In this document: positions 2,116 to 54,503 of the stretch, piece by piece
Numbering within the stretch: the stretch's first letter is position 1
Layout: each line of letters starts with the position of its first letter
Source: Escherichia coli
GTDB taxonomy: Bacteria; Pseudomonadota; Gammaproteobacteria; Enterobacterales; Enterobacteriaceae
Direction: 5' to 3' (one strand)
NCBI RefSeq assembly: GCF_030013205.1
Contig: NZ_CP122648.1
DNA length: 64,000 nt
Program-made: the position numbers and the translations under genes
The notes under the pieces: generated by a model
The model's input: the letters and a program-made list of their open reading frames with translations, nothing else
The model's database searches: none
Told to the model about the DNA's origin: nothing

Positions 2116-3015
2116 CTAAACAGCACCTTTATACTTCAGCCTATCTATAAATAATGAGAATGCCGAGCCAGCATGTCGACGGTGTGGATAGTACAGGTGA
2201 TAACCGGGTAAATCTGGTGTGAATTTATCCAAAACACGTATCAGTTTTTATTCTTTAATAGCCCGCTCAACTTGATCATAAGGTAGATACGCCAATCCAT
2301 GCCCATCAATTGCAGCATCAATGATCAGGTCTATCGTATTCAGTAAAAGCTGACCTTCCATGCGAACACGAACTTCACGTCCACCGCGTATTAATCTCCA
2401 GCGATTTGCTGTACCCGATGTGGGAAGATACAAATTAATTGCCTGATGATCTATTAATTGTGACACTGACGTTGGAGCACTTCGACGAGAAAAATAATCC
2501 GGTGAGCCAACAATAGCCATTGGTATATCTGGCCCGATTCGAATGGCGATCATATCTTTATCCATCTCCCCACCCAGACGGACGCCTGCATCAAAACGTT
2601 CAGAAACGACATCGGTCAAACCATAATCAATGGTAAGCTGGATATCAATTTCAGGATGCGATTTCAGGAATGTGCGCATAGCTGGTAACAATATCGTTTT
2701 TGCTGCATGTTCTACAGTAGTAATACGTATTGTCCCGGATGGGCGGTTCTGCAGATCGCTCAGGGATGTCAGGGCAGAATCTATGTCATGCAACATAGGG
2801 CCAAGAACAGACAAAAGATGCTCGCCCGCTTCAGTGGGTACAACGCTGCGCGTGGTTCGCGTCAGAAGCCGCAATCCCAATCGTTCTTCTATACGGCGCA
2901 CTATCTGGCTTAAAGCTGACTGCGCCATGCTCAGGCGGGCTGCTGCGCGAGTGAAGCTACGCTCCTCTGCAACGACGACAAACGCCATCAGATCAGCGAT
3001 TTCTTCACGCTTCAT
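2116..3015 (-). pseudogene. pgrR: LysR-family regulator PgrR interrupted by an in-frame TAA at 2248-2250; expressed ORF 2248-3015 is 255 codons
   Basis: N-terminal LysR HTH (MKREEIADLMAFVVVAEERSFTRAAARL...). Translating past the TAA in the same frame gives KLIRVLDKFTPDLPGYHLYYPHRRHAGSAFSLFIDRLKYKGAV then TAG at 2116-2118, a typical LysR C-terminus. 255 + 1 + 43 = 299 codons, the length I recall for PgrR. Confidence 0.75.
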
Positions 3016-4073: not shown

Positions 4074-4147
4074 TGAAACATATTCAAATCCGCAATAGTG
4101 ATATGGCCTGGCATATTACTGCCAATAATCTGGGAAAAGTTTCATGA
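4073..4147 (+). CDS. ymjD: 24-codon small ORF (MKHIQIRNSDMAWHITANNLGKVS) bridging ycjY and ymjC
   Basis: ATG overlaps the ycjY stop (TAATG) and its TGA overlaps the ymjC ATG (ATGA); GAGGAA 12 nt upstream. Below the ORF-track length cut-off. Gene name is tentative. Confidence 0.3.
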   Translation: MKHIQIRNSDMAWHITANNLGKVS

Positions 4148-4770
4148 AAAATGTACTGATTCTTGGTGCTGGCGGTCAGATAGCCCGCCATGTGATTAAT
4201 CAACTGGCAGATAAACAAACCATTAAACAAACTTTATTTGCCCGTCAGCCAGCAAAAATCCACAAACCCTATCCCACTAATAGCAAGATTATTATGGGGG
4301 ATGTACTGAATCATGCAGCACTGAAGCAGGCCATGCAGGGACAGGATGTTGTGTATGCCAACCTTACGGGGGAAGATTTAGATATTCAGGCAAATTCAGT
4401 GATCGCTGCGATGAAAGCCGGTGATGTTAAACGTCTGATCTTTGTTCTTTCCCTCGGTATTTATGATGAAGTTCCAGGAAAATTTGGCGAATGGAATAAT
4501 GCAGTTATTGGTGAGCCCCTAAAACCATTCCGCAGGGCTGCGGATGCAATTGAGGCTTCTGGACTGGAATATACAATTCTTCGCCCTGCCTGGCTGACTG
4601 ATGAAGATATTATTGATTATGAGCTTACCTCACGCAATGAACCATTCAAAGGTACGATCGTATCACGTAAGAGTGTCGCTGCATTAATTACAGATATCAT
4701 CGATAAACCTGAGAAACACATTGGTGAGAATATAGGCATCAATCAACCGGTGATGCTGCCAACTTACTGA
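4144..4770 (+). CDS. ymjC: NAD(P)-binding Rossmann-fold oxidoreductase; 3' end altered by IS1 insertion
   Basis: N-terminal MKNVLILGAGGQIARH is a GxGxxG dinucleotide-binding motif. The last 7 codons (PVMLPTY) and the stop are encoded by the IS1 left end; the original 3' end continues at 5526-5559. Confidence 0.6.
   Translation: MKNVLILGAGGQIARHVINQLADKQTIKQTLFARQPAKIHKPYPTNSKIIMGDVLNHAALKQAMQGQDVVYANLTGEDLDIQANSVIAAMKAGDVKRLIFVLSLGIYDEVPGKFGEWNNAVIGEPLKPFRRAADAIEASGLEYTILRPAWLTDEDIIDYELTSRNEPFKGTIVSRKSVAALITDIIDKPEKHIGENIGINQPVMLPTY
4740..4748. repeat. IS1 target-site duplication, left copy (CAATCAACC)
   Basis: Identical 9-mer immediately flanks both IS1 ends. Confidence 0.85.
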
Positions 4771-4803
4771 TTTAGTGTATGATGGTGTTTTTGAGGTGCT
4801 CCA

Positions 4804-5079
4804 GTGGCTTCTGTTTCTATCAGCTGTCCCTCCTGTTCAGCTACTGACGGGGTGGTGCGTAACGGCAAAAGCACCGCCGGACATCAGCGCTATCTCTGCT
4901 CTCACTGCCGTAAAACATGGCAACTACAGTTCACTTACGCCGCCTCTCAGCCCGGTACGCACCAGAAAATCATTGATATGGCCATGAATGGCGTCGGATG
5001 TCGCGCCAGTGCACGCATTATTGGCGTTGGCCTCAACACGATTTTCCGCCACTTAAAAAACTCAGGCCGCAGTCGGTAA
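4804..5079 (+). CDS. insA: IS1 InsA
   Basis: 91-aa ORF with zinc-finger-like CPSCS...CSHC N-terminus; matches recalled InsA. Confidence 0.9.
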
Positions 5080-5501
5080 CCTCGCGCATACAACCGGGCA
5101 GTGATGTGATTGTCTGCGCTGAAATGGACGAACAGTGGGGCTACGTCGGTGCTAAATCACGTCAGCGCTGGCTGTTTTACGCGTATGACAGGATGCGGAG
5201 GACGGTTGTGGCGCACGTCTTCGGTGAACGCACTCTGGCCACACTGGAGCGTCTTCTGAGCCTGCTGTCGGCCTTTGAGGTCGTGGTATGGATGACGGAT
5301 GGCTGGCCGCTGTATGAATCACGCCTGAAGGGAAAGCTGCACGTTATCAGCAAGCGTTATACTCAGCGCATTGAGCGGCATAACCTGAATCTGAGACAAC
5401 ATCTGGCAAGGCTGGGACGGAAGTCACTGTCGTTCTCAAAATCGGTGGAGCTGCATGACAAGGTCATCGGGCATTATCTGAACATAAAACACTATCAGTA
5501 A
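4998..5501 (+). CDS. insB: IS1 InsB (transposase catalytic part, made as an InsAB' fusion by -1 frameshift)
   Basis: 167-aa ORF overlapping insA in the -1 frame; matches recalled InsB. Confidence 0.85.
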
Positions 5502-8185: not shown

Positions 8186-9727
8186 TTACTCTTCGTTCTT
8201 CTTCTGACTCAGACCGTATTCCCGCAACTTATTGGCAATCGCGGTATGCGAAACGCCCAGGCGTTTTGCCAGTTTGCGCGTGCTGGGATAATTGCGATAA
8301 AGCTGGGTTAATACCGAGCGTTCAAAACGGCTGGTGATTTCGTCCAGCGAACCTTCCATCGCATCTTCGCCCACGGCTACCGTTGCGGCGTCATAATCCG
8401 GTAACAAAATATCCTGTGGACGCAGCTCATAACCGTCCAGTTGTGTCAGTGCGCGATAAATAGCGTTCTTTAACTGCCGCACATTTCCCGGCCACGCATA
8501 ACGCGTAAGTACAGTATTCAGGTCAGCGGCCAGTTTCGGACGCGGCACGCCCTGCTCGTCGGCAAAGCGGGCGACGAACAGCTCGGTTAACGGCATGATG
8601 TCCTGCGGACAGTCACGTAGCGGCGGCAGATTAAGCGTCAACACGTTCAGACGATAATAAAGATCTTCACGGAACACGCCTTTTTGCACCAGTTCGACAA
8701 GATTCTTCTGCGTCGCGCAAATCACCCGCACATCGACATGCACCTCATGGTCTTCGCCAACCCGACGGAAAGTGCCATCATTAAGGAAACGCAGTAATTT
8801 CGCCTGCATCCGTGGTGACATCTCACCTATTTCATCCAACAGCACCGAACCACCGTTCGCCTGCTCAAAGAACCCTTTCTTCCCTTCCGGAGCATGACCA
8901 AACAGTTCACTCTCGACCGCATCTTCCGGTATAGACGCACAGTTCAGCGCCAGATAGGGTTTGCCCGCGCGTGGGCTTGCCTGATGACAGGCATATGCAA
9001 AGAGATCTTTTCCGGTGCCGGTATCACCGGTTATCAGCAATGGCGCGCTTAGCATCGCCAGTTTCTGCGCCTGTTCGACAACATGCTTCATTTTCGGGCT
9101 GACGGCGACAATTTGACTGAAGGCGCTGACGTCCTGGGCGGCGACATTTTGCAACTGACGACCCATACGAATCGTTGATCGCAACATCACCACCGCACCG
9201 GTCAGGACGTGTTGATCATTTTCATCCTGAAGATAAACAGGCGTAATCTCCATCAGGAAATTCTGTCCATTAATAACGACATGCTCGTTATGGGAATCCT
9301 GCGGTTCGCTTTCCAGCCAGCGTAAAAAATTAAAGCCGTTAATCAATTGCGCGGCGGTATGGTTGCGCAGGCGATCCAATTTTTGCCCAAAAAGCTGACA
9401 GCTCGCCGGGTTCGCCATATCCACTTTGCTTTTCATATCGACAGAGAGCACAGGTTCAGGCAACGCTTCCAGTAACGCGCTCAACGCCAGATGCTCACGT
9501 TCAGAAGGCATCCACGGGACAGTACGGACATCGGTAACACCTGCAATACGGCGTATTTCGGCCATCAGACTGCTGAAACTCTCAAACTCCAGTTCAGCAA
9601 AATTGAGGTAGATTCGCCCAATGGGATCAATCTCAATACCGCGTAAATCAATGCCTCTTAGCACGAGTAGATCGAGTAATTCGCGGGTCAGACCGAGTCG
9701 GTCTTCACAAAAGACTTCCAGACGCAT
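8186..9727 (-). CDS. tyrR: Sigma54-type enhancer-binding-protein-family regulator TyrR
   Basis: ORF 8186-9754; start placed at MRLEVFCEDR to give 513 aa. Recognised by sequence recall. Confidence 0.9.
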   Translation of the reverse strand: MRLEVFCEDRLGLTRELLDLLVLRGIDLRGIEIDPIGRIYLNFAELEFESFSSLMAEIRRIAGVTDVRTVPWMPSEREHLALSALLEALPEPVLSVDMKSKVDMANPASCQLFGQKLDRLRNHTAAQLINGFNFLRWLESEPQDSHNEHVVINGQNFLMEITPVYLQDENDQHVLTGAVVMLRSTIRMGRQLQNVAAQDVSAFSQIVAVSPKMKHVVEQAQKLAMLSAPLLITGDTGTGKDLFAYACHQASPRAGKPYLALNCASIPEDAVESELFGHAPEGKKGFFEQANGGSVLLDEIGEMSPRMQAKLLRFLNDGTFRRVGEDHEVHVDVRVICATQKNLVELVQKGVFREDLYYRLNVLTLNLPPLRDCPQDIMPLTELFVARFADEQGVPRPKLAADLNTVLTRYAWPGNVRQLKNAIYRALTQLDGYELRPQDILLPDYDAATVAVGEDAMEGSLDEITSRFERSVLTQLYRNYPSTRKLAKRLGVSHTAIANKLREYGLSQKKNEE

Positions 9728-9797
9728 GGGAACCTTCACCTGAAAAAAGAACAATTAATATGATGATATGACACTATTTGGATAGCAGGAAGGTTTC

Positions 9798-9815
9798 TGT
9801 CAACAATCATTGACA
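9798..9815. promoter_or_regulatory. Candidate TyrR box (TGTCAA-N6-TTGACA) in the tyrR upstream region
   Basis: Palindrome fits the TGTAAA-N6-TTTACA pattern; tyrR is known to be autoregulated. Assignment of this particular site is inference. Confidence 0.4.
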
Positions 9816-9874
9816 CAAAGACGGAAAAACGGGCACTTCGGCGTAAAGATATCCGGTCAGCACCCGATATTGCA

Positions 9875-10936
9875 TTATTTTTCGCTGGGCGTTTTGCCTT
9901 TTTGCAGAGTTTCTTTCACCTGACCGATAAGCTGACGACGGAAATCCCCGAGGCGTGGCTTGTCATCGTCAATCCACGGCAGCGGGCGGCAAAGCTCCAT
10001 AGCTTTAATCCCCAGTCGTGCCGTCAGAAGTCCTGCACCAATCCCCTGAGCTGCGCGGGTAGACAAACGCGCAGCGAGATCTTGCGACATCCAGTCCATC
10101 CCCACTTCGCGAACCAGTTCGCTGGCTCCGGCGAAAGCGATATTCAGCAATACCAGCTTGAACAGGCGCAAACGGCTGTAATACCCCAGTTCAATGCCAT
10201 ACAGCGTGGCGATGCGATTAATCAAACGCAGATTGCGCCAGGCGATAAATGCCATATCCACCAGCGCCAGCGGGCTAACGGCGATCATTAACGTTGATTC
10301 CGCTGCCGAACGGCTGATTTCGCGCCGTGCCTGGGCATCTAAAACCGGCTGGACCAGATGAGCATACAGGCTGACCACTTCACGATCGTTCTGCGTTTCA
10401 TGGATTGAGGCATACCAGCGTTGCAGCGCCGGATGCGACTGATCAATACCCGCCTGCTGCGCCAGTTTTTCGCAGAATGCACGGCCTTTACCCGTGCCGT
10501 GACTGTGCAACAAATCGCGCGCTTCGTCGCGTTCATGGGCGCGCTGTCGCAAGCGCCATAAGCGCCGCCACTCTGTTACCACAGAACCTACGCCAGCGCC
10601 GATAATCAATGCCCCAGCGGCACATCCACCCAGCGCCACCCAGTCCTGGGTTTGCCAGGCGTTCATTGTCCACTGTACACCCTGCCCGACAACGCTTGCG
10701 CCAAACAGAGCCAACCCGCCCATCACCATTTTGCGCCACAGGCTGCGTTTCGGACGTAACGCTGCATCCATTACCGCTTCAACTTGCCCCTCTTCTTCCT
10801 GCGCTTCATCGAGCGTGGCCGGGGCAAAATTTTGCGCCTGATTTTCGTCAAAGGTCTGCTGCACCCTGAATTTTGGATTCTGATCGACCTCCAGTGGACC
10901 GTCGAAATCAATACGTGGTTTTAACGGTTCGGTCAT
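9875..10936 (-). CDS. ycjF: Inner-membrane protein of unknown function (UPF0283 family)
   Basis: 353-aa ORF with central hydrophobic segments; overlaps the ycjX stop by 4 bp. Confidence 0.85.
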
Positions 10937-12330
10937 CGCAATTTATCTCCTATTAAAAATTCCAGCGCAGCATCAAGGCGAATATGCGGCAGCGGTTTGT
11001 CGACATCCATCACCTGCGGACGAAACGCCTCAAACTGGAAGCCTTGCTTATCCCAGAACGCCTGACCAGGCAAACGTGCGGGAACTTCGCCAGGATAAAC
11101 AGTGAGCGGTGCGCCATCACTGAGTCGATTACCGCGCAGCGCCGGGATTTTCTCACCGTTAACATCAATAATGCCGCTGGTGGTCGCCTGAACTGACGCC
11201 AGCCCCAGGCAGTCCATGCTGATCCCTTCGAACGCCGCATTTTGCCAGGCATCCTGAATTAGTTGTTGCAGTAATGAAACCATATTGGCGTGCTGATCGA
11301 TGGTCACATGGTCTGCTTTAGTCGCAGCAAACAATAGCTTATCGATAACCGGCGAAAACAAACGCCGGAACAGGGTTCGCTGCCCGTAGTGGAAACTTTG
11401 CATCAGCTGCGTCAGCGCCAGACGCATATCATTAAATGCCTGTGGCCCACTGTTGAGAGGCTGCAGGCAATCCACCAGCACAATCTGGCGGTCAAAGCGC
11501 AGAAAATGATTCTTATAGAACCCCTTCACCACCTTCTCGCAATAATAATTAAAGCGCTCGCGCAGCATTCCGGCATTGGTATGCTTATCGGCCTGCGCCA
11601 GTTTGGACTCGCCCCAGGCATCGACATCCGGCCACGGGAAGAATTGCAGCGCGGGTGCTCCTGCCATATCTCCCGGCAAGACAAAGCGCCCAGGCTGAAT
11701 AAAGTGCAACCCCTGCTGTTTGCAGTGGTGGAGATACTCGGTCCAGGCGGCGGCAATGTCTGCCAGCCGGTTTTCGTCGGCAGGCGCTAGCGGGTCCAGC
11801 CCTTCGCACATCATTCGCCATTTCGCCGACCATTCGCCGCGCTGACCATTGAGTAAGCCCGTCATCTGGCGCGACCAGCTTAAATAGTCCTGCGCCAGCA
11901 TCGGCAGGTCGAGCAACCATTCGCCGGGGTAATCCACAATTTCCAGATACAGCGTGGAGGTGTCCTTAAAGTGGCGTAGCAGCGAATCGTTCGATTTAAA
12001 ACGTAACGCCAGGCGAATTTCACTGACGCCGCGCGTAGGCGTCGGCCAGGCGGGAGGATCGCCATATAACTGCGCCAACCCTTCATCATAGGTGAAGCGC
12101 GGAATGCCAAAGTCACGCTGGGGAATGCGTTTTACGCCCAGCAGGCGCTCTTCACGCACCGCACTTAAAAGCGGCAAACGTGCTCCGGCATGAATATTAA
12201 GCAACTGATTAACCATCGCGGTGATAAACGCTGTTTTGCCGCTGCGGCTAAGTCCGGTTACAGCGAGGCGCAGATGTCTGTCGACACCCCGATTCACCAG
12301 CGCATTAAGTTCATTTTTAAGTCGCTTCAT
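10933..12330 (-). CDS. ycjX: P-loop NTPase of unknown function
   Basis: 465-aa ORF; Walker A motif GLSRSGKT near the N-terminus. Confidence 0.85.
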
Positions 12331-43618: not shown

Positions 43619-44425
43619 ATGATCGAAACGCTGCTTGAAGTGCGTAATTTAAGTAAAACGTTCCGCTACCGGACCGGCTGGTTTCGTCGTCAGACCGTAG
43701 AAGCGGTAAAACCCTTGAGCTTTACGCTACGTGAAGGCCAGACACTGGCGATCATTGGTGAGAATGGTTCTGGTAAATCCACGCTGGCAAAAATGCTGGC
43801 GGGAATGATAGAACCTACCAGCGGCGAGTTATTGATTGACGATCATCCGCTGCATTTTGGCGATTATTCCTTCCGCAGTCAGCGTATTCGCATGATTTTT
43901 CAGGATCCTTCGACCTCGTTGAATCCCCGTCAACGTATCTCGCAAATTCTGGATTTTCCACTGCGTCTGAACACCGATCTGGAACCTGAACAGCGTCGCA
44001 AACAGATTATTGAAACGATGCGTATGGTTGGGCTGCTACCGGATCACGTCAGTTACTATCCGCATATGTTGGCACCCGGGCAAAAACAGCGTCTGGGGCT
44101 GGCGCGCGCGCTGATATTGCGCCCAAAAGTCATTATTGCCGATGAAGCCCTCGCCTCACTGGATATGTCGATGCGTTCGCAGTTGATTAATCTGATGCTT
44201 GAGTTACAGGAAAAACAGGGCATTTCGTATATTTATGTTACCCAGCATATCGGAATGATGAAGCACATTAGCGACCAGGTGCTGGTGATGCATCAGGGCG
44301 AGGTTGTCGAGCGAGGCAGCACCGCAGATGTGCTGGCATCGCCGCTGCATGAACTCACCAAACGGCTGATTGCCGGTCATTTTGGCGAGGCATTGACGGC
44401 GGATGCGTGGCGTAAGGACCGTTAG
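43619..44425 (+). CDS. sapF: Sap ABC transporter ATP-binding protein
   Basis: 268-aa ORF with Walker A GENGSGKST. Confidence 0.9.
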   Translation: MIETLLEVRNLSKTFRYRTGWFRRQTVEAVKPLSFTLREGQTLAIIGENGSGKSTLAKMLAGMIEPTSGELLIDDHPLHFGDYSFRSQRIRMIFQDPSTSLNPRQRISQILDFPLRLNTDLEPEQRRKQIIETMRMVGLLPDHVSYYPHMLAPGQKQRLGLARALILRPKVIIADEALASLDMSMRSQLINLMLELQEKQGISYIYVTQHIGMMKHISDQVLVMHQGEVVERGSTADVLASPLHELTKRLIAGHFGEALTADAWRKDR

Positions 44426-44432
44426 TGTTTTG

Positions 44433-44469
44433 CACCTCATCCTGACAGGGCCCCCCTCAGGATGAGGTG
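44433..44469. terminator. 13-bp perfect-stem hairpin between convergent sapF and the MFS gene; T-rich on the sapF side
   Basis: CACCTCATCCTGA ... TCAGGATGAGGTG with an 11-nt loop; abuts the MFS stop (44474-44476). Confidence 0.6.
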
Positions 44470-44473
44470 TTCA

Positions 44474-45637
44474 TTACTTTTGATTGTCGATTCTGGTGAG
44501 AGCAACCAGCAATGCCAGCGTATAACACACCGTAATTGCCAGACTCATTTTTAACAGTGTTTCTCCGCCAATTCCCGACAATGGCGCGGCTATACCGCCG
44601 AAGACAAACATGCTCATCCCCATCAACGCAGACGCCGTTCCAGATTCCTGCGTCCCTACTGCACTCATAGCCTCTGCCCCGCCAACAGTGCCGATGCCGC
44701 TACAAAATGCGATGGTGAAAAATAATGCCACCAGTGCCGGAATGGGCAATTGTATCCATGCGCATAAGACCGTGAGCATTGCACACAAAATTGCCGCTAT
44801 CAGGCCACCTCGCAACAATGTCATCGCGTTAATCCGTCGCGCCAGGCGCGAGAAGATCCATGAAGCAATGATAAGTCCGATGCCGTTAAGGCCAAACACC
44901 AGGCTAAATTGCATTGGACTAAAGCCAAATTCCTTCTGCAACACGAACGACGAAGAGCCGATATATGCAAACAAACCGGCCAGCATAAAACTTTGAATCA
45001 GGCAAAAGCGCATAAAACGGCGGTTCTGCACCACGCTTCGTCCGGTTAATAGCAATGATGAGCCCCTTTTATTTTCTGGCAAGGTCTCATTAATAAATAA
45101 CAGGCAGCCCAGCAACAGTACGGTGCTAATTTCAGCCATTACCCAGAATAAAGTGCGCCAGTCAAAAGTGCTGACAATGTACCCGCCCAGCACTGGCGAC
45201 AACACCGGTGCCAGGCCATTCACCGTCATTAACAGCGCAAAAAACTGGGTCAACGTTACTCCCTGATATTTGTCACGAGCAATAGAACGAGAGAGCACCG
45301 AACCACCCGCCCCCGCGATCCCTTGAATAAAACGCCAGACCACCAGCCAGTAAATATTGTTCGTTGTCGCGCACAAAATGGAAGAAACAATAAACAATAG
45401 CAACGACAAGATTAACGGACGTTTACGCCCTATTTTGTCGCTCAGAGGGCCAAATAACAGTTGTCCGACGCCAAGACCGATCAGTGATGCAGTCAGCGTT
45501 AATTGCGTTATGGTCGTGGTTGCCGCCAGTTGCTCAGACATCTCCGGCAAAGCCGGCAAATAAAGATCGGTACACATCGGGCCGATACCGGCTAAAAGAC
45601 CAAGAATCAATGCCCATGAAAGAGAGACTCTAGCCAT
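44474..45637 (-). CDS. MFS (DHA1, Bcr/CflA-like) efflux transporter; last gene of the efflux cluster
   Basis: 387-aa polytopic membrane ORF with MFS signature GPLSDKIGRKRP after the first helices; starts 8 nt after the OMF stop. Confidence 0.8.
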   Translation of the reverse strand: MARVSLSWALILGLLAGIGPMCTDLYLPALPEMSEQLAATTTITQLTLTASLIGLGVGQLLFGPLSDKIGRKRPLILSLLLFIVSSILCATTNNIYWLVVWRFIQGIAGAGGSVLSRSIARDKYQGVTLTQFFALLMTVNGLAPVLSPVLGGYIVSTFDWRTLFWVMAEISTVLLLGCLLFINETLPENKRGSSLLLTGRSVVQNRRFMRFCLIQSFMLAGLFAYIGSSSFVLQKEFGFSPMQFSLVFGLNGIGLIIASWIFSRLARRINAMTLLRGGLIAAILCAMLTVLCAWIQLPIPALVALFFTIAFCSGIGTVGGAEAMSAVGTQESGTASALMGMSMFVFGGIAAPLSGIGGETLLKMSLAITVCYTLALLVALTRIDNQK

Positions 45638-45645
45638 ATTATTCC

Positions 45646-47019
45646 TTACTTGAGTGATGACATGCCGCCGTCCAGCGACTGCCAGAGCGTGATTCGGTTT
45701 GTAAAATCAGTCAGTTGTAGTGCCAGCAGCGCCTGCTGTGCGCTCCACAAGCTGCGCTGCGCCGTCAACACGGTCAGGTAATCACCAACACCCGCCTGAT
45801 AGCGACGCAAGCCAACATCGACCGTTTGTTGCTCAGCTTTAACATACTGGCGCTGTGCATCCAGTTGCTCTTCAAGCGTGGTCCGCCGCGCCAGTGCGTT
45901 AGCGACATCTTTAAATGCGCTCTGAACGGTTTTTTCATAGGTGGCAATGAGTCCACGCTTTTGTGCTTCTGCGTAACGAAGCTGCGCCAGATTACTTCCG
46001 CCAGTGAACAGCGGTAATGTGACCGATGGCGTAAATGACCAGATCTGCATTCCGTGGCTGAACAACGACGACAATGCGTCACTGCCAACACCAGCGCTGG
46101 CAGTCAGCGAAATCGTCGGAAAAAAGTTAGCCCGCGCCGCGCCAATATCGGCATTGGCGCTCTTCAAATTATGTTCCGCTTCCTGGATATCCGGGCGACG
46201 CAGCAGAACGTCAGATGACACTCCCGCAGGAACCAGACTTATCATTTGTTCCGGCAGGCTTTCCAGTGTTCCCGGTAGCAGATTTTCCGCAAGCGTTGTA
46301 CCTGCCAGTAAGTTCAGCGCATTTTTATCCTGCATCACTTGTGTCTGATAGCTGGCAACGCTGGCGCGCGCTTGCTGATAAACACTCATCGCCTCACTGA
46401 CATCTGTCGCTGCCGCCGTGCCAACCTGTTGCTGGCGCTGGATAATTTTCAATGAGTTTTCTGCACTGGCCATCGTTTCTTTTGCCAGGGCCAGGTTGCT
46501 GTTATCAGCCGCCAGTGTCAGCCAGGCGGTGCTGATTTCAGCAATCAGCGTTAAACGAGTGTTCTGGGCTGTAAATTCACTGGCAAGCCAGGTTTCCCGC
46601 GCCGCCCGAGATAAACTCTGATTACGACCAAACAGATCTAACGTAAAACTGGACACCGTGCCGTCAGCCTCGGCAGTGGTTTCCGTACCATTCGCCAGCG
46701 AACGACTGCGGGTTGAACTTAAGGCCGCATTCACCGTCGGGAATAACGACGCATTAGTTTGCCCATAGAGCGCCCGTGCTGAGTCAATATCAGCAATCGC
46801 TTTTTGCACATCGCGGTTACTGTTCAGTGCAATAGTCACCACCTGCTGCAATCGGGGATCGTGGATCACCTGCTGCCAGTCATGGCTGATTGCCTTTCCC
46901 TGGCCCTGTGCTCCCGGCAAGGTCGCCGGGATTGGGGATTCAGGCGTGCTGTAGTGGGGCTCGAGCGAGACACATCCCGCACTCAACAGCACCAGAAAAA
47001 TAAGAGAACGACGCAACAT
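45646..47019 (-). CDS. Outer-membrane efflux lipoprotein (OMF, NodT/OprM family)
   Basis: 457-aa ORF with lipoprotein signal peptide (LLSAGC) and the long coiled-coil-rich body typical of OMFs. Confidence 0.8.
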   Translation of the reverse strand: MLRRSLIFLVLLSAGCVSLEPHYSTPESPIPATLPGAQGQGKAISHDWQQVIHDPRLQQVVTIALNSNRDVQKAIADIDSARALYGQTNASLFPTVNAALSSTRSRSLANGTETTAEADGTVSSFTLDLFGRNQSLSRAARETWLASEFTAQNTRLTLIAEISTAWLTLAADNSNLALAKETMASAENSLKIIQRQQQVGTAAATDVSEAMSVYQQARASVASYQTQVMQDKNALNLLAGTTLAENLLPGTLESLPEQMISLVPAGVSSDVLLRRPDIQEAEHNLKSANADIGAARANFFPTISLTASAGVGSDALSSLFSHGMQIWSFTPSVTLPLFTGGSNLAQLRYAEAQKRGLIATYEKTVQSAFKDVANALARRTTLEEQLDAQRQYVKAEQQTVDVGLRRYQAGVGDYLTVLTAQRSLWSAQQALLALQLTDFTNRITLWQSLDGGMSSLK

Positions 47020-47022
47020 AAC

Positions 47023-50000
47023 TTACTCCTGACGGCGCGGTTTACCGGCAAACAAACGTTTCACCAGTACAAAAAACAGAGGAACAAAGAAAATAGCCAG
47101 CAACGTAGCGGTCAGCGTACCGCCAATAATGCCCGTACTAATGGCGATGCGGCTGTTCGCCCCTGCGCCGGTTGCTATCGCCAGCGGCATTACCCCCGCA
47201 ATAAACGCCAGCGAGGTCATGATGATTGGGCGTAAACGAGTCTGCGCCGCGCGTAATGCCGCACGACTCAAGGAATAGCCCTCTGCAACCGCCGCTTCAG
47301 CAAATTCCACAATCAGAATGGCGTTTTTCGACGACAAGCCGATAGTGGTTAATAGCGCCACCTGGAAGTAAACATCGTTGTTTAAATCACGCATCCAGGC
47401 CGCCAGCGCCGCGCCAAGAAGCCCCAGAGGGATCACCAGAATGACCGAGAACGGGACTGACCAGCTTTCGTACAGTGCTGCAAGGCAGAGGAAAACCACC
47501 AGAATAGAAACTGCATACAGACTCAATGCCTGACCGCTGGCCAGTTTCTCCTGCAATGACAAACCACTCCAGGCCCAGGTTGTTCCCGCAGGAAGACTGT
47601 TTGCCAGTTCCTCCATTTTTGTCATTGCATCGCCGGAACTAAAGCCAGTCGCATTTTCCCCCTGAATTTCATAGGCTGCCGAGCCGTTGTAGCGCACCAG
47701 TCTTTCCGGTCCATACAGCCAGCGGGTGGTCGCAAAAGCAGAGAATGGTGTCATGGCGTTATCGCTGCCGCGCACAAACCATTTACCTAAGTCTGACGGC
47801 GCGGAACGAAATTCGCTGTCGCCCTGAATGTAGACTTTTTTCACACGACCACGGTCAATAAAGTCATTCACATAAGTACCGCCCCACGCACTGGACAGGG
47901 TGTCGGTGACATCATTCAAACTCAACCCTAATGACACCACTTTATTGCTATCAATATCTACCTGCAATTGCGGCATTTGTGGCAAATCATTGGCGCGTAC
48001 AGAATGTAACTCCGGACTTTGATTCGCTTTTTCTATCAACTGATTACGCATTTGCAGCAGTGTTTCACGATCGGTTCCACCGTTAGCTAACAATTCAAAC
48101 GTAAAACCATTGCTTTGCCCCAGCCCATCAACGGCTGGCGGCGTCATCGCAAATACCGTGGCATCACGAATTGTGCCCAGCTCTTTGGTTGCCCGTAGGG
48201 CGATAGCCTGGGCGGTGTTTTCTGCCCCTTTACGTTGAGACCAGTTTTTCAACGAAACAAACGCCATCCCGGTGTTCTGTCCGCTGCCGCTAAAACTGAA
48301 ACCATCAACGGTAAAGATGACATCGGTATTTGCTTTCTCGTTAATCAGGAACCAGTCAACAATCTGGCGATTCACTTCTGCTGTACGGGCAGCGGTCGCC
48401 CCGGCCGGCAGCGTGTACTGCACCATGATTTCGCCCTGGTCTTCAGTGGGTAAGAAACTGCCCGGCAGTTTCCACATCATCAGGGCCATTCCACCACCCA
48501 GTACGACATAAAGCCCCATCGTTCGAGCAGCACGGCGCAGGACATAAATTACGCCTCGCTGATATTTATCTTCAGTACGGCGGTAAAAGCGGTTAAATGC
48601 GCCAAAAAAGCCTTTTTTATGTGGCGGAACATGCTGGAGGACGGAACCGCACAGGGCGGGAGTCAAGGTCAATGCCACTACCACGGAAAGCAGCATTGCG
48701 GAGATAATGGTTATCGAAAACTGACGATAAATTACCCCCGTAGATCCCCCAAAGAAGGCCATAGGCAGGAATACGGCTGACAACACCAGCGCAATGGCAA
48801 CCAGTGCGCCAGAAATCTCGCCCATTGATTTTTCCGTGGCTTCACGCGCGGGCAACCCTTCGTCACGCATAATGCGTTCGACGTTCTCCACCACCACAAT
48901 GGCATCGTCCACCAGCAAGCCGATCGCCAGCACCATTGCAAACAACGTCAGGGTATTAATCGAATAGCCAAACAACGCAAGAACGCCGAATGTGCCCAGC
49001 AAAACGACGGGGACAGCTAACGCCGGAATCAGTGTGGCACGCAGGTTTTGCAGGAATAAATACATCACGCAAACCACCAATACGATGGCTTCAAACAGCG
49101 TCTGAATTACGTCCTCTACAGAGATTTTAATAAATTCAGTGCTGTCTTTCGGGTATGCGATGTCGTATCCCTGCGGCATGTTCCGCTGGAATTCGGCAAT
49201 CTTATCCTTGACCAGCGTCGCCGTATTCAGCGCATTCGCACCGGGCGAAAGCATTACAGCAACCCCGGCAGACGGGTGACCGTTAAGTTTGCCGATAGCG
49301 GTATAATCTTCACTGCCCATCTCAACGCGAGCCACATCTTTTATACGAACAACTGCGCCGTCTGACTGGCTTTTCACGATAATATTTTTGAACTGATCCA
49401 CCGTCTGCAAGCGAGACTGCGCACGTACCGTTGCGGTCAGTTGCTGAGTATTCGGTGAAGGCAATGCCCCTATTTTCCCGGCAGTAACCTGCACGTTTTG
49501 CGCTTCAATAGCACTTTGCACGTCTGAAGGCATTAGCGAGTAAGACGCCAGTTTGGCCGGGTCAAGCCAGATGCGCATAGCGTATTCCGCGCCAAAGACT
49601 TGCAGACTCCCCACACCTTCAACACGCGCCAGCGGGTCCTGAACGTTACTAACCAACCAGTCGGCGATATCCGAACTGGAGGCTTTGTCAGTGGTGTCAT
49701 ACACGGCAGCAATCAGCAAAAAGTTGCTTTGTGATTTCTCCACCGTAACACCCGTTTGCTGCACTTCGCTGGGTAGGCGCGACTCCGCCTGCTGAATTTT
49801 ATTCTGCACCTGAACCTGTGCAGTATCTGGATCGGTACCTTGTTCAAAGGTCACATTAATACTGACCGAACCATCAGAGCTGCTGGTTGAGCTGAAATAG
49901 AGTAAATTATCAAGCCCAGTGAGTTGTTGCTCGATAACCTGAGTCACGCTGTTCTCCAGCGTTTCGGCAGAAGCACCAGTATAAGTGGCTGAAATTTTAA

Positions 50001-50130
50001 TGGTCGGTGGCGCAACGTCAGGATATTGTGCGACGGGCAATGTGCGAATAGCCAGAATCCCCGCCAACATAATCAAAATGGCGATAACCCAGGCAAAGAC
50101 CGGGCGGCGAACAAAAAAGCGCGAAAACAT
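47023..50130 (-). CDS. RND (HAE1, AcrB/MexB-like) inner-membrane efflux pump
   Basis: 1035-aa ORF with strong recalled similarity to AcrB blocks (MFSRFF..RPVFAWVIAI..., VQVQNK..., GLLVDDAIVVVENVER, NDVYFQVALLTTIGLS). Start overlaps the MFP stop (TGATG). Confidence 0.85.
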   Translation of the reverse strand: MFSRFFVRRPVFAWVIAILIMLAGILAIRTLPVAQYPDVAPPTIKISATYTGASAETLENSVTQVIEQQLTGLDNLLYFSSTSSSDGSVSINVTFEQGTDPDTAQVQVQNKIQQAESRLPSEVQQTGVTVEKSQSNFLLIAAVYDTTDKASSSDIADWLVSNVQDPLARVEGVGSLQVFGAEYAMRIWLDPAKLASYSLMPSDVQSAIEAQNVQVTAGKIGALPSPNTQQLTATVRAQSRLQTVDQFKNIIVKSQSDGAVVRIKDVARVEMGSEDYTAIGKLNGHPSAGVAVMLSPGANALNTATLVKDKIAEFQRNMPQGYDIAYPKDSTEFIKISVEDVIQTLFEAIVLVVCVMYLFLQNLRATLIPALAVPVVLLGTFGVLALFGYSINTLTLFAMVLAIGLLVDDAIVVVENVERIMRDEGLPAREATEKSMGEISGALVAIALVLSAVFLPMAFFGGSTGVIYRQFSITIISAMLLSVVVALTLTPALCGSVLQHVPPHKKGFFGAFNRFYRRTEDKYQRGVIYVLRRAARTMGLYVVLGGGMALMMWKLPGSFLPTEDQGEIMVQYTLPAGATAARTAEVNRQIVDWFLINEKANTDVIFTVDGFSFSGSGQNTGMAFVSLKNWSQRKGAENTAQAIALRATKELGTIRDATVFAMTPPAVDGLGQSNGFTFELLANGGTDRETLLQMRNQLIEKANQSPELHSVRANDLPQMPQLQVDIDSNKVVSLGLSLNDVTDTLSSAWGGTYVNDFIDRGRVKKVYIQGDSEFRSAPSDLGKWFVRGSDNAMTPFSAFATTRWLYGPERLVRYNGSAAYEIQGENATGFSSGDAMTKMEELANSLPAGTTWAWSGLSLQEKLASGQALSLYAVSILVVFLCLAALYESWSVPFSVILVIPLGLLGAALAAWMRDLNNDVYFQVALLTTIGLSSKNAILIVEFAEAAVAEGYSLSRAALRAAQTRLRPIIMTSLAFIAGVMPLAIATGAGANSRIAISTGIIGGTLTATLLAIFFVPLFFVLVKRLFAGKPRRQE

Positions 50131-51251
50131 CAGGCGTTGCCTCCATTAGCCTGAACTTCAACAGCCTTGACGGTCTGCCCTGAAGTGACTTTGGCAGAAC
50201 CTTCAACAATCAGTCGGTCGCCGTTGTGCAGGCCGTTCAGCACCAGCCATTTATCACCATACGTTTCTCCCGTTTCGAGCGTTCGCTGCTCTACTTTATT
50301 GTCTTTATTCACCACCAGCGCAGTTGCATTGCCTTTAGCATCGCGCGTGACGCCCTGTTGCGGCGCGAGAATAGCGTCTTCCATCACGCCTTCATCGACA
50401 CGAGCGCGAACAAACATTCCCGGTAATAACTGCTGTTGTGGATTGGGGAAAATCGCCCGTAATGTCACCGAACCGGTAGACTCATCTACAGCGACTTCGG
50501 TGAGTTCCAGACGCCCTTTTTCGCTGTAGGTTGTGCCATCTTCCAGAATAAGTGAGACGCTCATGGTGTCACTGTTGGTCGCCAGTGACTGTTTACGCAG
50601 ACGTAATAAATCGACACTGGAGCGAGTGAGGTCGACATACATTGTCTCCAGACCACGAATAGTCGTTAACGCTGTATCTTGCGACGCGGTCACCAGTGCG
50701 CCAGGGGTTACCGACGAAATGCCAATTCGCCCTGAAATCGGTGCGGTTACCGTGGTCCAGTCAAGATTAATGCGCGCAGTTTCCAGCGCGGCTTTTTTCG
50801 CCTCTACACTGGCTTTATCTTGTGCACAGGTAGACTGAGCATCATCAGCATCCTGTTGTGAAACACCGTTCTCTTTCACCAGTCGGGCATAACGCTGCGC
50901 TTTCTGGCAATCGGCTTTTACCAGTGCCTGTGCTTGTTGTAATGCTGCCCGAGCTTCATTCCATGCAGCCTGATAACTGGCCGCATCAATCTGGTAGAGA
51001 GGCTGTCCAGCCTTGACCAGATCCCCTTCCTTAAATAAGCGTTTCTGGATAATTCCCCCAACCTGCGGACGTACTTCAGCACTGAGCGCAGCACTGGTGC
51101 GTCCGGTTAATTCACTGACTACCGAGACCGGTTGAGATTTGACTGTAACAACGCCGACTTCTGTTTCTGACGGGGATGAATTGTTACTTTGCGTATTATC
51201 ACAACCAGATAAGAGCAGCATTGCCACTACAGATGTTGCTATATACTTCAT
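50130..51251 (-). CDS. Periplasmic membrane-fusion lipoprotein (AcrA/MexA family)
   Basis: ORF 50130-51284; start placed at MKYIATSVVAMLLLSGC (lipobox, GGAG 8 nt upstream). Confidence 0.8.
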   Translation of the reverse strand: MKYIATSVVAMLLLSGCDNTQSNNSSPSETEVGVVTVKSQPVSVVSELTGRTSAALSAEVRPQVGGIIQKRLFKEGDLVKAGQPLYQIDAASYQAAWNEARAALQQAQALVKADCQKAQRYARLVKENGVSQQDADDAQSTCAQDKASVEAKKAALETARINLDWTTVTAPISGRIGISSVTPGALVTASQDTALTTIRGLETMYVDLTRSSVDLLRLRKQSLATNSDTMSVSLILEDGTTYSEKGRLELTEVAVDESTGSVTLRAIFPNPQQQLLPGMFVRARVDEGVMEDAILAPQQGVTRDAKGNATALVVNKDNKVEQRTLETGETYGDKWLVLNGLHNGDRLIVEGSAKVTSGQTVKAVEVQANGGNA

Positions 51252-51278
51252 TATTTTCTCCAGGGTGAGAAATACCCT

Positions 51279-51298
51279 CCTCATTAAAATTAATGAGG
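51279..51298. promoter_or_regulatory. Perfect inverted repeat CCTCATTAA-aa-TTAATGAGG 28-47 nt upstream of the MFP start; candidate operator
   Basis: Read from sequence; 9-bp arms, 2-bp spacer. Confidence 0.35.
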
Positions 51299-51335
51299 AT
51301 ATGTCAGGGATATTCAGTTATAACGAACCCGCATC

Positions 51336-51351
51336 GCGAAATGAATTTCGC
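51336..51351. promoter_or_regulatory. Perfect inverted repeat GCGAAAT-ga-ATTTCGC between tetR and the MFP gene; candidate operator
   Basis: Read from sequence; 7-bp arms, 2-bp spacer. Confidence 0.35.
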
Positions 51352-51361
51352 AATGAAATAA

Positions 51362-51379
51362 GGGGGATTAATATCCCCC
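51362..51379 (-). terminator. GC hairpin (GGGGGA-TATTAA-TCCCCC) followed by a U-rich tract on the minus strand, 20 nt after the tetR stop
   Basis: Minus strand reads hairpin then TTATTTCATT; candidate terminator or attenuator between regulator and pump genes. Confidence 0.4.
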
Positions 51380-51399
51380 GCTATTGGTTAATTCTGTTC

Positions 51400-51966
51400 T
51401 TATTTATTTATCAACATACTAACAATATCCTGATATATTTCCTGCAGATGTTGTGGATCGCTTTTTTGCGGTGTTAAACGACGATAAACCGTACCTTCCA
51501 TCATGGTAGCAAACACTTCAACGCAGCAACGAATGTGCTCGTCGCTAAGATGGGGATGCATTCTTTTCATATGTGCACAACCGTTAGCGAACATTCTGGC
51601 GTCAGCTTCTTCAAGCATTGCCATAACCCGCGGGTTGCGTGTGGCTTCTGCAGCCACTTCCAGCATCAGCGCGTCGTCGTCCTCATTTAAGGATTTACGC
51701 AAGGCAAGGACTTCCGGGAAGTGATCGGTACGCGCGTCAATGTCCATTTGGGCAATACGAAAGTCGATGATACGGCGAACCATCTCTTCAATAATGGCGT
51801 CTTTGTTGGCGAAGTAACGATATATCTGACCCACGCTAAGCTGAGCTTCGCTGGCAATTTGCGACATACTGGCGGCATGAAACCCGCAGCGACGAAAACA
51901 CCGACGGGCGGCGTTAATGATTTCATCCTGACGCTGTTTGTGGCGTATCTCCAGCTTGCTGGTCAT
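51400..51966 (-). CDS. TetR/AcrR-family transcriptional regulator, co-oriented with and upstream of the pump genes
   Basis: ORF 51400-52065; start placed at MTSKLEIRHK (AGGAGA 5 nt upstream) so the HTH (AARRCFRRCGFHAASMSQIASEAQLSVGQIYRYF) sits at the usual N-terminal position. The longer 221-codon version would read through the palindrome at 51992-52009. Confidence 0.75.
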   Translation of the reverse strand: MTSKLEIRHKQRQDEIINAARRCFRRCGFHAASMSQIASEAQLSVGQIYRYFANKDAIIEEMVRRIIDFRIAQMDIDARTDHFPEVLALRKSLNEDDDALMLEVAAEATRNPRVMAMLEEADARMFANGCAHMKRMHPHLSDEHIRCCVEVFATMMEGTVYRRLTPQKSDPQHLQEIYQDIVSMLINK

Positions 51967-51991
51967 TTCTGTCTCCTGGCCTATCACTTGG

Positions 51992-52009
51992 TGAGAATGA
52001 TCGTTCTCA
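51992..52009. promoter_or_regulatory. 18-bp imperfect palindrome TGAGAATGATCGTTCTCA 26 nt upstream of the proposed tetR start; candidate autoregulatory operator
   Basis: Two mismatches from perfect dyad symmetry. Confidence 0.35.
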
Positions 52010-52443
52010 TTTTTGCTGATTATACGTTTCTCCAAAGTAATGGAAAGTATTTTTATCTTATTCATGGTGCATATTCTGATAATGAAGAGATTGTGGAGAT
52101 TATGTGAAGATAGTTGACAATATTAAGTTGGGGTCAATTCATCAGAAAGGCTGCTACTTGTTGTCGCCAGTTCTGTTTTCATCATCAAACTTATCGGAGC
52201 TAATACGAATAGTTTCAGAGTCAGATTCTATAAGATATTCCCCCAACCTACCCCTTGCAGGCGTCAAGAGTAGATAACGCAAAATGCTCTGTACCGCAGC
52301 TTCTCTCCGGTACAGAAAGCGCAACTATAGCCACCCACAGCCAGGTTGATTATAATAACCGTTTATCTGTTCGTACTGTTTACTAAAACGACGAATCGCC
52401 TGATTTTCAGGCACAACAAGCATCAACAATAAGGATTAAAGCT

Positions 52444-53232
52444 ATGGGTTTTCTTTCCGGTAAGCGCATTCTGGTAACCGGTGTTGCCAGCAAACTGTCC
52501 ATCGCCTACGGTATCGCTCAGGCGATGCACCGCGAAGGAGCTGAACTGGCATTCACCTACCAGAACGACAAACTGAAAGGCCGCGTAGAAGAATTTGCAG
52601 CTCAATTGGGTTCTGACATCGTTCTGCAGTGCGATGTTGCCGAAGATGCCAGCATCGACACCATGTTCGCTGAACTGGCGAAAGTTTGGCCGAAATTTGA
52701 CGGTTTCGTACACTCTATTGGTTTTGCACCTGGCGATCAGCTGGATGGTGACTATGTTAACGCCGTTACCCGTGAAGGCTTCAAAATTGCTCACGACATC
52801 AGCTCCTACAGCTTCGTTGCAATGGCAAAAGCTTGCCGCTCCATGCTGAATCCGGGTTCTGCCCTGCTGACCCTTTCCTACCTTGGCGCTGAGCGCGCTA
52901 TCCCGAACTACAACGTTATGGGTCTGGCAAAAGCGTCTCTGGAAGCAAACGTGCGCTATATGGCGAACGCGATGGGTCCGGAAGGTGTGCGTGTTAACGC
53001 CATCTCTGCGGGTCCGATCCGTACTCTGGCGGCTTCCGGTATCAAAGACTTCCGCAAAATGCTGGCTCATTGCGAAGCCGTTACCCCGATTCGCCGTACC
53101 GTTACCATTGAAGATGTGGGTAACTCTGCGGCATTCCTGTGCTCCGATCTCTCTGCCGGTATCTCCGGTGAAGTGGTCCACGTTGACGGCGGTTTCAGTA
53201 TCGCTGCAATGAACGAACTCGAACTGAAATAA
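52444..53232 (+). CDS. fabI: Enoyl-ACP reductase (NADH)
   Basis: 262-aa ORF; recognised by sequence recall. Confidence 0.95.
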
Positions 53233-53375: not shown

Positions 53376-54503
53376 ATGGAACAACGCCACATCACCGGCA
53401 AAAGCCACTGGTATCATGAAACGCAATCCAGTACTGCGGAGAATGACGTTCTGCCTCTGGTCCCGGAAGCCGCAAAGGTTAGCGATCCCTTTCTGCTCGA
53501 CGTGATCCTTGATGAAAAAACGCTGGCCCCCTTCCTTTCATGGCTGGACCCTGCGCGCGTTCTTGCAGCGGAGTTATTCCCTGACCAGCTTACCGTGACC
53601 CGTTCACAGACCTTCACCGCTTATGAACGCTTGTCGACGGCCCTGACGGTTGCTCAGGTTTGCGGCGTCCAACGGTTATGTAACTACTATTCGGCGCGAC
53701 TTACGCCGCTCCCCGGGCCTGATTCCTCCAGGGAAAGTAATCATCGGTTGGCACAAATCACGCAATATGCCCGCCAACTGGCTAGCTCGCCTTCTATTAT
53801 CGACAACCGATCGCGCCAGCATCTGAATGACGTCGGTCTTACTGTCTGGGACTGTGTGATCATTAATCAAATCATTGGTTTTATTGGCTTTCAGGCGCGG
53901 ACCATTGCGACATTTCAGGCTTATCTCGGGCATCCGGTACGCTGGTTACCCGGTCTGGAGATACAAAACTATGCCGACGCGTCACTGTTTGCTGATGAAT
54001 CAATACGCTGGCGAAGCAGCTATGATGTGGAAAAACTACCTGAAGAGTACACAAAAAGTTCAACTACAGAACTTTGCCAACTGGCCGAAACACTCTCTCT
54101 CCACCCTATTTCACTTTCCCTTCTCGAAAAGTTGTTAAACAGCACACGGGTTAATACACAGCCGGATAATCAGCTTGCGGCGTTGATATGCGCGCGGATA
54201 AATGGCAGTCCTGCTTGTTTTGCCGCCTGTATGGATTCATCAAATGAATATAAAAAAATCAGCCCCCTTCTGCGCAAGGGCGAAAATGAAATTAACCAAT
54301 GGGCTGACCGTCATTCTGTTGAGCGCGCTACCGTTCAGGCGATACAATGGCTGACCCGAGCACCCGATCGCTTTAGCGCCGCCCAGTTCAGCCCTTTACT
54401 CGAACACGAAAAATCATCAACGCAGATTATTAATCTGCTGGTATGGAGCGGGCTGTGTGGCTGGATAAATCGCTTAAAAATCGCGTTGGGTGAGACATAT
54501 TAA
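53376..54503 (+). CDS. yciW: CMD-domain protein of unknown function
   Basis: ORF 53298-54503; start placed at MEQRHITG to give 375 aa. Confidence 0.75.

Follow-up and report, generated by a model that had tools for sequence, protein, structure and literature searches.

The sapF-fabI cluster of a swine Escherichia coli strain is very probably the published eefRABCD efflux operon, an apparently ancestral Escherichia locus absent from K-12

We analysed a window of 64,000 nucleotides (nt) from Escherichia coli (NCBI RefSeq assembly GCF_030013205.1, contig NZ_CP122648.1), in which five genes lie between sapF and fabI. With a probability that we put at about 0.93, this cluster is the known E. coli operon eefRABCD, a drug-efflux operon with its own repressor, and is not new. 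The operon was described by Pugh et al. (bioRxiv 2024; Microb Genom 2026; PMC12817139) in ATCC 25922 and characterised in ATCC 35218 by Shen et al. (Virulence 2025; PMC12482432). The genes in the window are as follows.

44474-45637, minus strand: eefD, 387 amino acids (aa); major facilitator superfamily (MFS) transporter of the Bcr/CflA (DHA1) subfamily, last gene of the operon
45646-47019, minus strand: eefC, 457 aa; outer-membrane factor (OMF) lipoprotein of the NodT/OprM type, lipobox LSAGC
47023-50130, minus strand: eefB, 1035 aa; HAE-1 resistance-nodulation-division (RND) inner-membrane pump
50130-51251, minus strand: eefA, 373 aa; periplasmic adaptor lipoprotein, lipobox LLSGC
51400-51966, minus strand: eefR, 188 aa; TetR-family autorepressor

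ATCC 25922 ("FDA strain Seattle 1946") has the same five-gene layout between fabI and sapF. Its EefR is 100% identical to that of the window, with which it shares the accession WP_000202113.1, and identity is 99.2% for EefA, 99.8% for EefB, 98.25% for EefC and 99.7% for EefD, corresponding to three, two, eight and one substitutions, respectively. All 20 of the residues quoted in PMC12817139 and PMC12482432 are found at the same numbering in the window (V45 and R50 of EefR; R120, R123, L124, V125, S131, D134, D136 and Q221 of EefA; D408, D409, K935 and T972 of EefB; D206, G412, L415, T416, L418 and T419 of EefC). The first-pass annotation of this DNA had held that near-identity to a characterised pump would remove the novelty of the cluster, and with 98.25-100% identity to ATCC 25922 this is the case. 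The hosts differ, since the window comes from a swine O139:H1-type strain of phylogroup D, whereas the comparison strains ATCC 25922 and ATCC 35218 belong to B2.

The open reading frame (ORF) list agrees with the first-pass annotation on five co-oriented minus-strand genes and their coordinates, and profile matches agree with its family calls (MFS, OMF, RND, membrane fusion protein (MFP) and TetR). The tight packing that it had described was recovered when the spacings were re-measured: eefA shares 1 nt with eefB, gaps of 3 nt and 8 nt follow, and the TetR gene lies 148 nt upstream of eefA. All five ORFs are intact. Against NCBIfam, EefB matches TIGR00915 (HAE1 RND) over its full length with 1548 bits (cutoff 940) and stays under the equivalog cutoffs of AcrB (1374 bits against 2150), AcrD (1404 against 1854) and OqxB (840 against 2200); the proton-relay residues D408, D409, K935 and T972 are all present, and among solved structures AcrB and MexB are closest (about 1280 bits). 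EefA matches TIGR01730 (RND adaptor, MFP) with 274 bits (cutoff 95), under the equivalog cutoffs of MexA (400 against 750) and AcrA (388 against 765). EefC, whose N-terminus MLRRSLIFLVLLSAGC carries the lipobox cysteine, matches TIGR01845 (NodT OMF) with 366 bits (cutoff 210), misses the TolC equivalog (54 against 495) and has OprM as its closest solved structure (E=1.8e-99). EefD matches TIGR00710 (Bcr/CflA MFS) with 283 bits (cutoff 201) and falls under the equivalog cutoffs for TcaB (316 against 475), Bcr, EmrD and MdfA. For EefR, a match to TetR_N (PF00440) is precomputed for a 99%-identical cluster representative, no NCBIfam equivalog (AcrR, BetI, RutR and others) was reached at cutoff, and the top PDB matches are TetR-family structures, the closest being UidR (E=1.4e-12), which is likewise given in PMC12482432.

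The products therefore share the HAE-1 RND tripartite architecture of MexAB-OprM of Pseudomonas aeruginosa and AcrAB-TolC of E. coli, with the proton-relay residues kept. EefC is closest to OprM, and EefB to AcrB and MexB, although EefB is only about 57% and EefA 50-54% identical to the counterparts in MexAB-OprM and AcrAB (PMC12817139). Unlike AcrAB-TolC, the eef operon encodes its own OMF, with no reliance on TolC, and has an extra MFS gene. EefD lies within the Bcr/CflA exporter subfamily (Bcr, TcaB, EmrD) but outside its equivalogs, and unlike those three exporters it has its gene, unusually, as the last of an RND operon.

The region upstream of eefR contains the published operator and a promoter-like site:

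51992-52009, minus strand: EefR operator, the 18-base-pair (bp) palindrome TGAGAACGATCATTCTCA, an exact match to the published operator
52019-52046, minus strand: eefR promoter-like site, with -35 TTTCCA, a 16-nt spacer and -10 TATAAT

The operator lies 25 nt upstream of the eefR ATG and 9 nt downstream of the -10 hexamer, and the chance expectation for it with at most one mismatch is about 0.17 matches per window. The promoter-like site has the top sigma-70-like score of the region (10 of 12 matches). The longest ORFs would extend eefA to 51284 and eefR to 52065, the latter being the end coordinate of the first-pass annotation. The true start of eefR is 51966, since the -10 hexamer and the operator fall within the longer ORF and the published EefR has 188 aa; the RefSeq annotation of another strain, whose sequence is identical across the region, has the same eefA and eefR starts. 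Since the operator begins 9 nt after the -10 hexamer, it would cover the expected transcription start, and this geometry fits repression there. Every Enterobacteriaceae locus has the operator, exact or one base off, at the same relative position; where starts are called it is 21-24 nt upstream of eefR, with seven exact copies and one mismatch in Klebsiella aerogenes. The minus strand at 51266-51283, 15 nt ahead of the eefA start codon, reads TGAGGAGGGTATTTCTCA, which departs from the operator consensus at one position; it was considered as a second EefR site and rejected; no other species keeps it at up to two mismatches, and it is probably due to chance. The GC content dips to 0.46-0.47 over eefR, the promoter and the spacer towards fabI (50500-52500), against about 0.51 elsewhere. 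The K. aerogenes eefABC genes are reportedly silenced by H-NS, and by analogy the AT-rich eef control region could be an H-NS target.

Shen et al. found that EefR (188 aa) represses its own promoter and binds the palindrome, as validated by electrophoretic mobility shift assay (EMSA), that the five genes are co-transcribed, and that deletion of eefR raises eefA-D mRNA 27- to 83-fold (PMC12482432). Their non-competing EMSA control was a 148-bp fragment downstream of eefR (PMC12482432), which is probably the eefR-eefA spacer since both are 148 nt, and this too speaks against the operator-like copy at 51266-51283 as a second site. On this model, EefR would bind the palindrome, which overlaps the point where transcription from the eefR promoter is expected to begin, and keep the whole operon, eefR included, almost silent, and when EefR is lost or released the eef genes would be transcribed together. 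EefA, the proton-driven EefB and the OprM-type channel EefC would then form a tripartite exporter, while EefD is predicted to export across the inner membrane. Repression, operator binding, co-transcription, ethidium efflux and multidrug resistance gains are the findings of others; the present analysis concerns the identity of the cluster, its distribution, junctions and synteny, and the purifying selection on it.

Several points weigh against so simple a picture. The two published studies conflict on the antibiotic phenotype. Knock-outs and pET expression of eef gave no change in antibiotic minimum inhibitory concentration (MIC), and only ethidium and rhodamine 6G were affected, in an acrB-deleted host only (PMC12817139), whereas pBR322-eefABC in acrB-deleted DH5alpha cells gave 8- to 32-fold higher MICs of six drugs (sanguinarine, chloramphenicol, erythromycin, tetracycline, clindamycin and fusidic acid; PMC12482432). 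The sister strain ETEC4068 (NZ_CP122681.1) has the insertion sequence (IS) IS2 in the 5' end of eefA and an eefB annotated as frameshifted, and the operon is therefore dispensable in that swine lineage; ETEC4075 has the same match pattern as ETEC4068. Finally, a conserved terminator-like hairpin (HP1, see below) lies between eefR and eefA, so the model of one promoter and one transcript may be incomplete.

We consider the chances evenly balanced that the operon, although real and expressed, has a physiological job other than antibiotic efflux, the antibiotic effects being a by-product of over-expression. The absence of antibiotic MIC changes in knock-outs and with pET expression (PMC12817139), and the strong purifying selection described below although AcrAB-TolC already handles drugs, both favour this possibility, as do the selection obtained with the plant alkaloid sanguinarine (PMC12482432) and the observation, given by Pugh et al., that deletion of eefA in Klebsiella pneumoniae lowers gut colonisation and acid tolerance (PMC12817139). 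It would then export compounds from the host, the diet or plants, or metabolites of the cell itself, that matter in gut colonisation. Such a role has to be set against the MIC increases for six unrelated drugs conferred by pBR322-eefABC in the acrB-null host (PMC12482432) and the IS-disrupted copies among natural isolates.

Pugh et al. placed eefRABCD between sapF and fabI in phylogroups B2, D, E, F and G, with ycjD instead in A, B1 and C (PMC12817139). DH1, a K-12 derivative, served as our K-12 comparison locus, and its sapF-fabI interval contains ycjD (a DUF559 gene) only, as the first-pass annotation had stated. That annotation had also seen no ycjD-like ORF in the window and the flanking genes otherwise in the expected order, in agreement with tblastn, which found no YcjD-like sequence in the window, and with the locus comparisons. 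The flanking genes are sapF (43619-44425) and fabI (52444-53232), and the features that distinguish the two loci are:

44433-52293: strain-variable segment, 7,861 bp, whose K-12 counterpart is 633 bp with ycjD
44432-44470, between the convergent sapF and eefD stop codons: long and perfect hairpin, fold -28 kcal/mol

Homology to K-12 is lost at 44432, 7 nt past the sapF stop, and regained at 52294 (blastn). The hairpin is likely to be a bidirectional terminator, and K-12 keeps only its 15-nt 5' arm (CACCTCATTCTGACA; CACCTCATyCTGACA), at 1954-1968 of the K-12-type locus. Remnants of eef in the K-12 interval, as suggested by Fig. 3 of PMC12817139, were sought in the 633 bp by local blastn, which gave no match at E<=0.1; the sole trace is this 15-nt arm at the left junction. 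Judged from the sequence, the K-12 interval looks like a replacement with a small scar rather than a stretch of scattered eef remnants.

The population sample comprised 5,426 complete E. coli genomes, with carriage defined as at least 80% coverage of the allele-specific segment. The eef-specific segment had a match in 2,043 genomes and was at least 80% covered in 2,037 (about 38%), and the K-12-specific (ycjD) segment was carried by 3,377. Since together they account for 5,420 of the 5,426 genomes, the sapF-fabI site is occupied by one of two alternative alleles. The first-pass description of a strain-variable accessory module in place of ycjD is thus borne out, provided that accessory is not taken to mean recently acquired. 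A few eef-positive genomes have an IS in the region (IS2, IS1203, IS5 or ISEc23). By megablast against the same genomes, the region is 100% identical to swine enterotoxigenic E. coli (ETEC) and O139:H1 strains such as K_EC180, to which the remainder of the window is 99.986-100% identical. O139:H1 of sequence type (ST) 1 has been typed as phylogroup D (PMC11052496), so these nearest strains fit the published B2/D/E/F/G distribution.

Five plasmid-borne eef copies have been reported, from which a transmission risk was inferred (Shen et al., PMC12482432). PLSDB holds three E. coli records with the cluster (NZ_CP141085.1, CP054253.1 and NZ_CP134663.1). One is a mislabelled chromosome of 4.9 Mb, and the two that were opened (252 kb and 385 kb) carry the order sapABCDF-eef-fabI-yciW-rnb-pdeR, including the essential fabI, and are typed as non-mobilizable with no replicon or relaxase typing. 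The examined "plasmid" records look like chromosomal pieces and lend no support to plasmid spread of the operon. The cluster does not have the properties of a mobile island or plasmid module: its context in the "plasmids" is chromosomal, its GC content is 0.507 against 0.512 for the window, and neither the annotation nor the ORFs show an integrase, transposase, tRNA or flanking direct repeats at the eef segment.

When one genome per species was scanned with EefD, all five genes turned up at the fabI-sapF site of four further Escherichia genomes, at 93-98% aa identity: those of E. albertii, E. whittamii, Escherichia sp. MOD1-EC7003 and one more species representative. Between the window and E. 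albertii, the ratio of nonsynonymous to synonymous substitution rates (dN/dS) is 0.024 for eefR, 0.101 for eefA, 0.039 for eefB, 0.052 for eefC and 0.062 for eefD, with 0.010 and 0.009 for the flanking core genes fabI and sapF, and the eef genes are under strong purifying selection. In this comparison their dS of 0.31-0.65 is similar to that of fabI (0.34) and sapF (0.72). We infer, in line with the published view, that the cluster is ancestral to Escherichia and was lost in the lineage towards phylogroups A, B1 and C, because it occupies the same site with the same junction genes in four non-coli species, its dS is like that of its flanks, its GC content is neutral, it has no mobility genes and the hairpin arm in K-12 looks like a deletion scar. 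On the same grounds, and in view of the chromosomal context of the "plasmid" records, it is very unlikely that the operon is a recently and horizontally acquired genomic island, even though only about 38% of E. coli genomes carry it, other genera have it at different chromosomal sites, and Pugh et al. suggested lateral acquisition with EefABC closer to MexAB-OprM than to the E. coli paralogues (PMC12817139). That the operon is a decaying, functionless relic persisting in some lineages is most improbable: it is silent in laboratory culture, was lost by phylogroups A, B1 and C as well as by ST69 and ST182 (PMC12817139) and has IS insertions in several genomes, but the window has five intact ORFs, at least 80% of the segment is retained in 2,037 of the 2,043 genomes that match it at all, the operator and leader structure are conserved across genera, and the dN/dS of 0.02-0.10 across the E. 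coli-E. albertii divergence largely refutes such decay.

The spacer between eefR and eefA contains three hairpins, with a conserved TTCACCCTGGAGAAA just ahead of the eefA ATG:

51252-51399, minus strand: eefR-eefA spacer, 148 nt
51362-51379, minus strand: HP1, terminator-like, GGGGGAT-ATTA-ATCCCCC followed by a T-run; a GC-rich 7-bp stem directly after the eefR stop
51332-51355, minus strand: HP2, hairpin
51279-51298, minus strand: HP3, hairpin

The spacer RNA of the window is predicted to fold with -47.8 kcal/mol (z=-3.99). HP1 is found in most genera with changed stem sequences, and RNAalifold recovers HP1 and HP2 from a nine-sequence alignment. A covariance model of HP2 and HP3 matches 14 loci, in the alignment of which the share of paired cells is 81.3%, compared with 66.6% for shuffles and 40-50% for slid controls, although this alignment was fitted to the covariance model and so leans towards structure. 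Two-sided changes occur at 15 of the 18 pairs; HP2 is 92% paired with nine of its ten pairs compensatory, and in HP2 and HP3 compensatory changes preserve the pairing between Escherichia and the genera Klebsiella, Cronobacter and Phytobacter. The U-G wobbles are on the eef sense strand, and the structure would therefore be an RNA of that strand. There is no Rfam family for the spacer or the operon; the single match, Bcj14 inside eefA, is sub-threshold (32 bits against a gathering score of 59) and was dismissed as chance. A leader peptide, MRVRYN, was rejected as it is not conserved (ATG TAG in E. albertii, no ATG in Enterobacter cloacae), and the spacer has no -10/-35 pair conserved across genera that could mark an internal promoter. 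Neither PMC12817139 nor PMC12482432 mentions a terminator or hairpin in this spacer. The conserved pairing tentatively suggests, as a possibility that we still regard as doubtful, that the spacer is an attenuating terminator together with a structured cis-regulatory RNA leader. If so, the leader would be a second, post-initiation checkpoint on top of EefR, and could help to explain both the cryptic pump and the conflicting phenotypes. Escherichia sp. MOD1-EC7003 has a 125-nt insertion between the eefR stop and HP1 (about 4112-4236 of the locus), which may resemble an enterobacterial repetitive intergenic consensus/intergenic repeat unit (ERIC/IRU) repeat.

EefR homologues of 59-72% identity are widespread in Enterobacterales. 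The operons of Klebsiella, Raoultella, Kluyvera, Kosakonia, Enterobacter and Cronobacter encode proteins of 84-88% (EefB), 73-82% (EefA), 73-77% (EefC) and 59-72% (EefR) identity and share the distance of the operator from eefR and the structured eefR-eefA leader, but the non-Escherichia loci are at other chromosomal sites, none of them between sapF and fabI. The operon was found in the following forms.

Five-gene eefRABCD: Klebsiella sp., Raoultella, Kluyvera, Kosakonia, Phytobacter, a Pseudocitrobacter metagenome-assembled genome and one record labelled Salmonella
Four-gene eefRABC, without eefD: E. cloacae and Cronobacter
eefR-eefA-eefB-eefC: K. aerogenes, where the contig ends inside eefC, so that the record does not decide on eefD; HP1 is missing
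Two-gene eefR-eefD: Erwinia toletana (9001-10772) and Pantoea sp. (9001-10772), with a 4-nt overlap and EefD 48-49% identical
Two-gene eefR-eefD: Pluralibacter gergoviae (9001-11026), with a 274-nt spacer that still has the eefA leader

Pugh et al. called the Enterobacter operon "not homologous" (PMC12817139). The operator, gene order and leader are common to both the Enterobacter and the Klebsiella operons, and since these features are shared, the sequence comparison argues, contrary to that statement, that both are true orthologues of eef. In the two-gene loci of Erwinia, Pantoea and Pluralibacter, EefR is 62-64% identical and there are no RND genes in between. Since the Pluralibacter spacer retains the eefA leader, eefABC was deleted secondarily there. 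The two-gene form of Erwinia and Pantoea, which is not mentioned in PMC12817139 or PMC12482432, may represent an older eefR-eefD unit in which eefABC became nested between the two genes.

Elsewhere in the window, YciW (53377-54503) is only 54-59% identical to its counterparts in E. whittamii, E. albertii and one further Escherichia, whereas the adjacent FabI is 99% identical; it is either a strongly divergent allele or a gene replacement. Within the regions of about 2116-3015 and 4803-5500, pgrR has an internal stop, with stop-free stretches of 255 and 43 codons, and an IS1 copy adjoins a truncated short-chain dehydrogenase/reductase (SDR) gene. The ycjW and ycjM genes are intact in the window and frameshift-flagged in the nearest annotated record.

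The present analysis adds to the published work the count in complete genomes, the exact K-12 junctions, evidence for an ancestral origin of the operon and for purifying selection on it, evidence for a chromosomal context of the examined "plasmid" copies, and the conserved structured leader. What is new is modest: the structure of the leader, the core form eefR-eefD and the reinterpretation of the plasmid records. As is already in the literature, K-12 gives an incomplete picture of the efflux systems of pathogenic E. coli lineages, which carry in eefRABCD a silent seventh RND pump that single eefR mutations can switch on.

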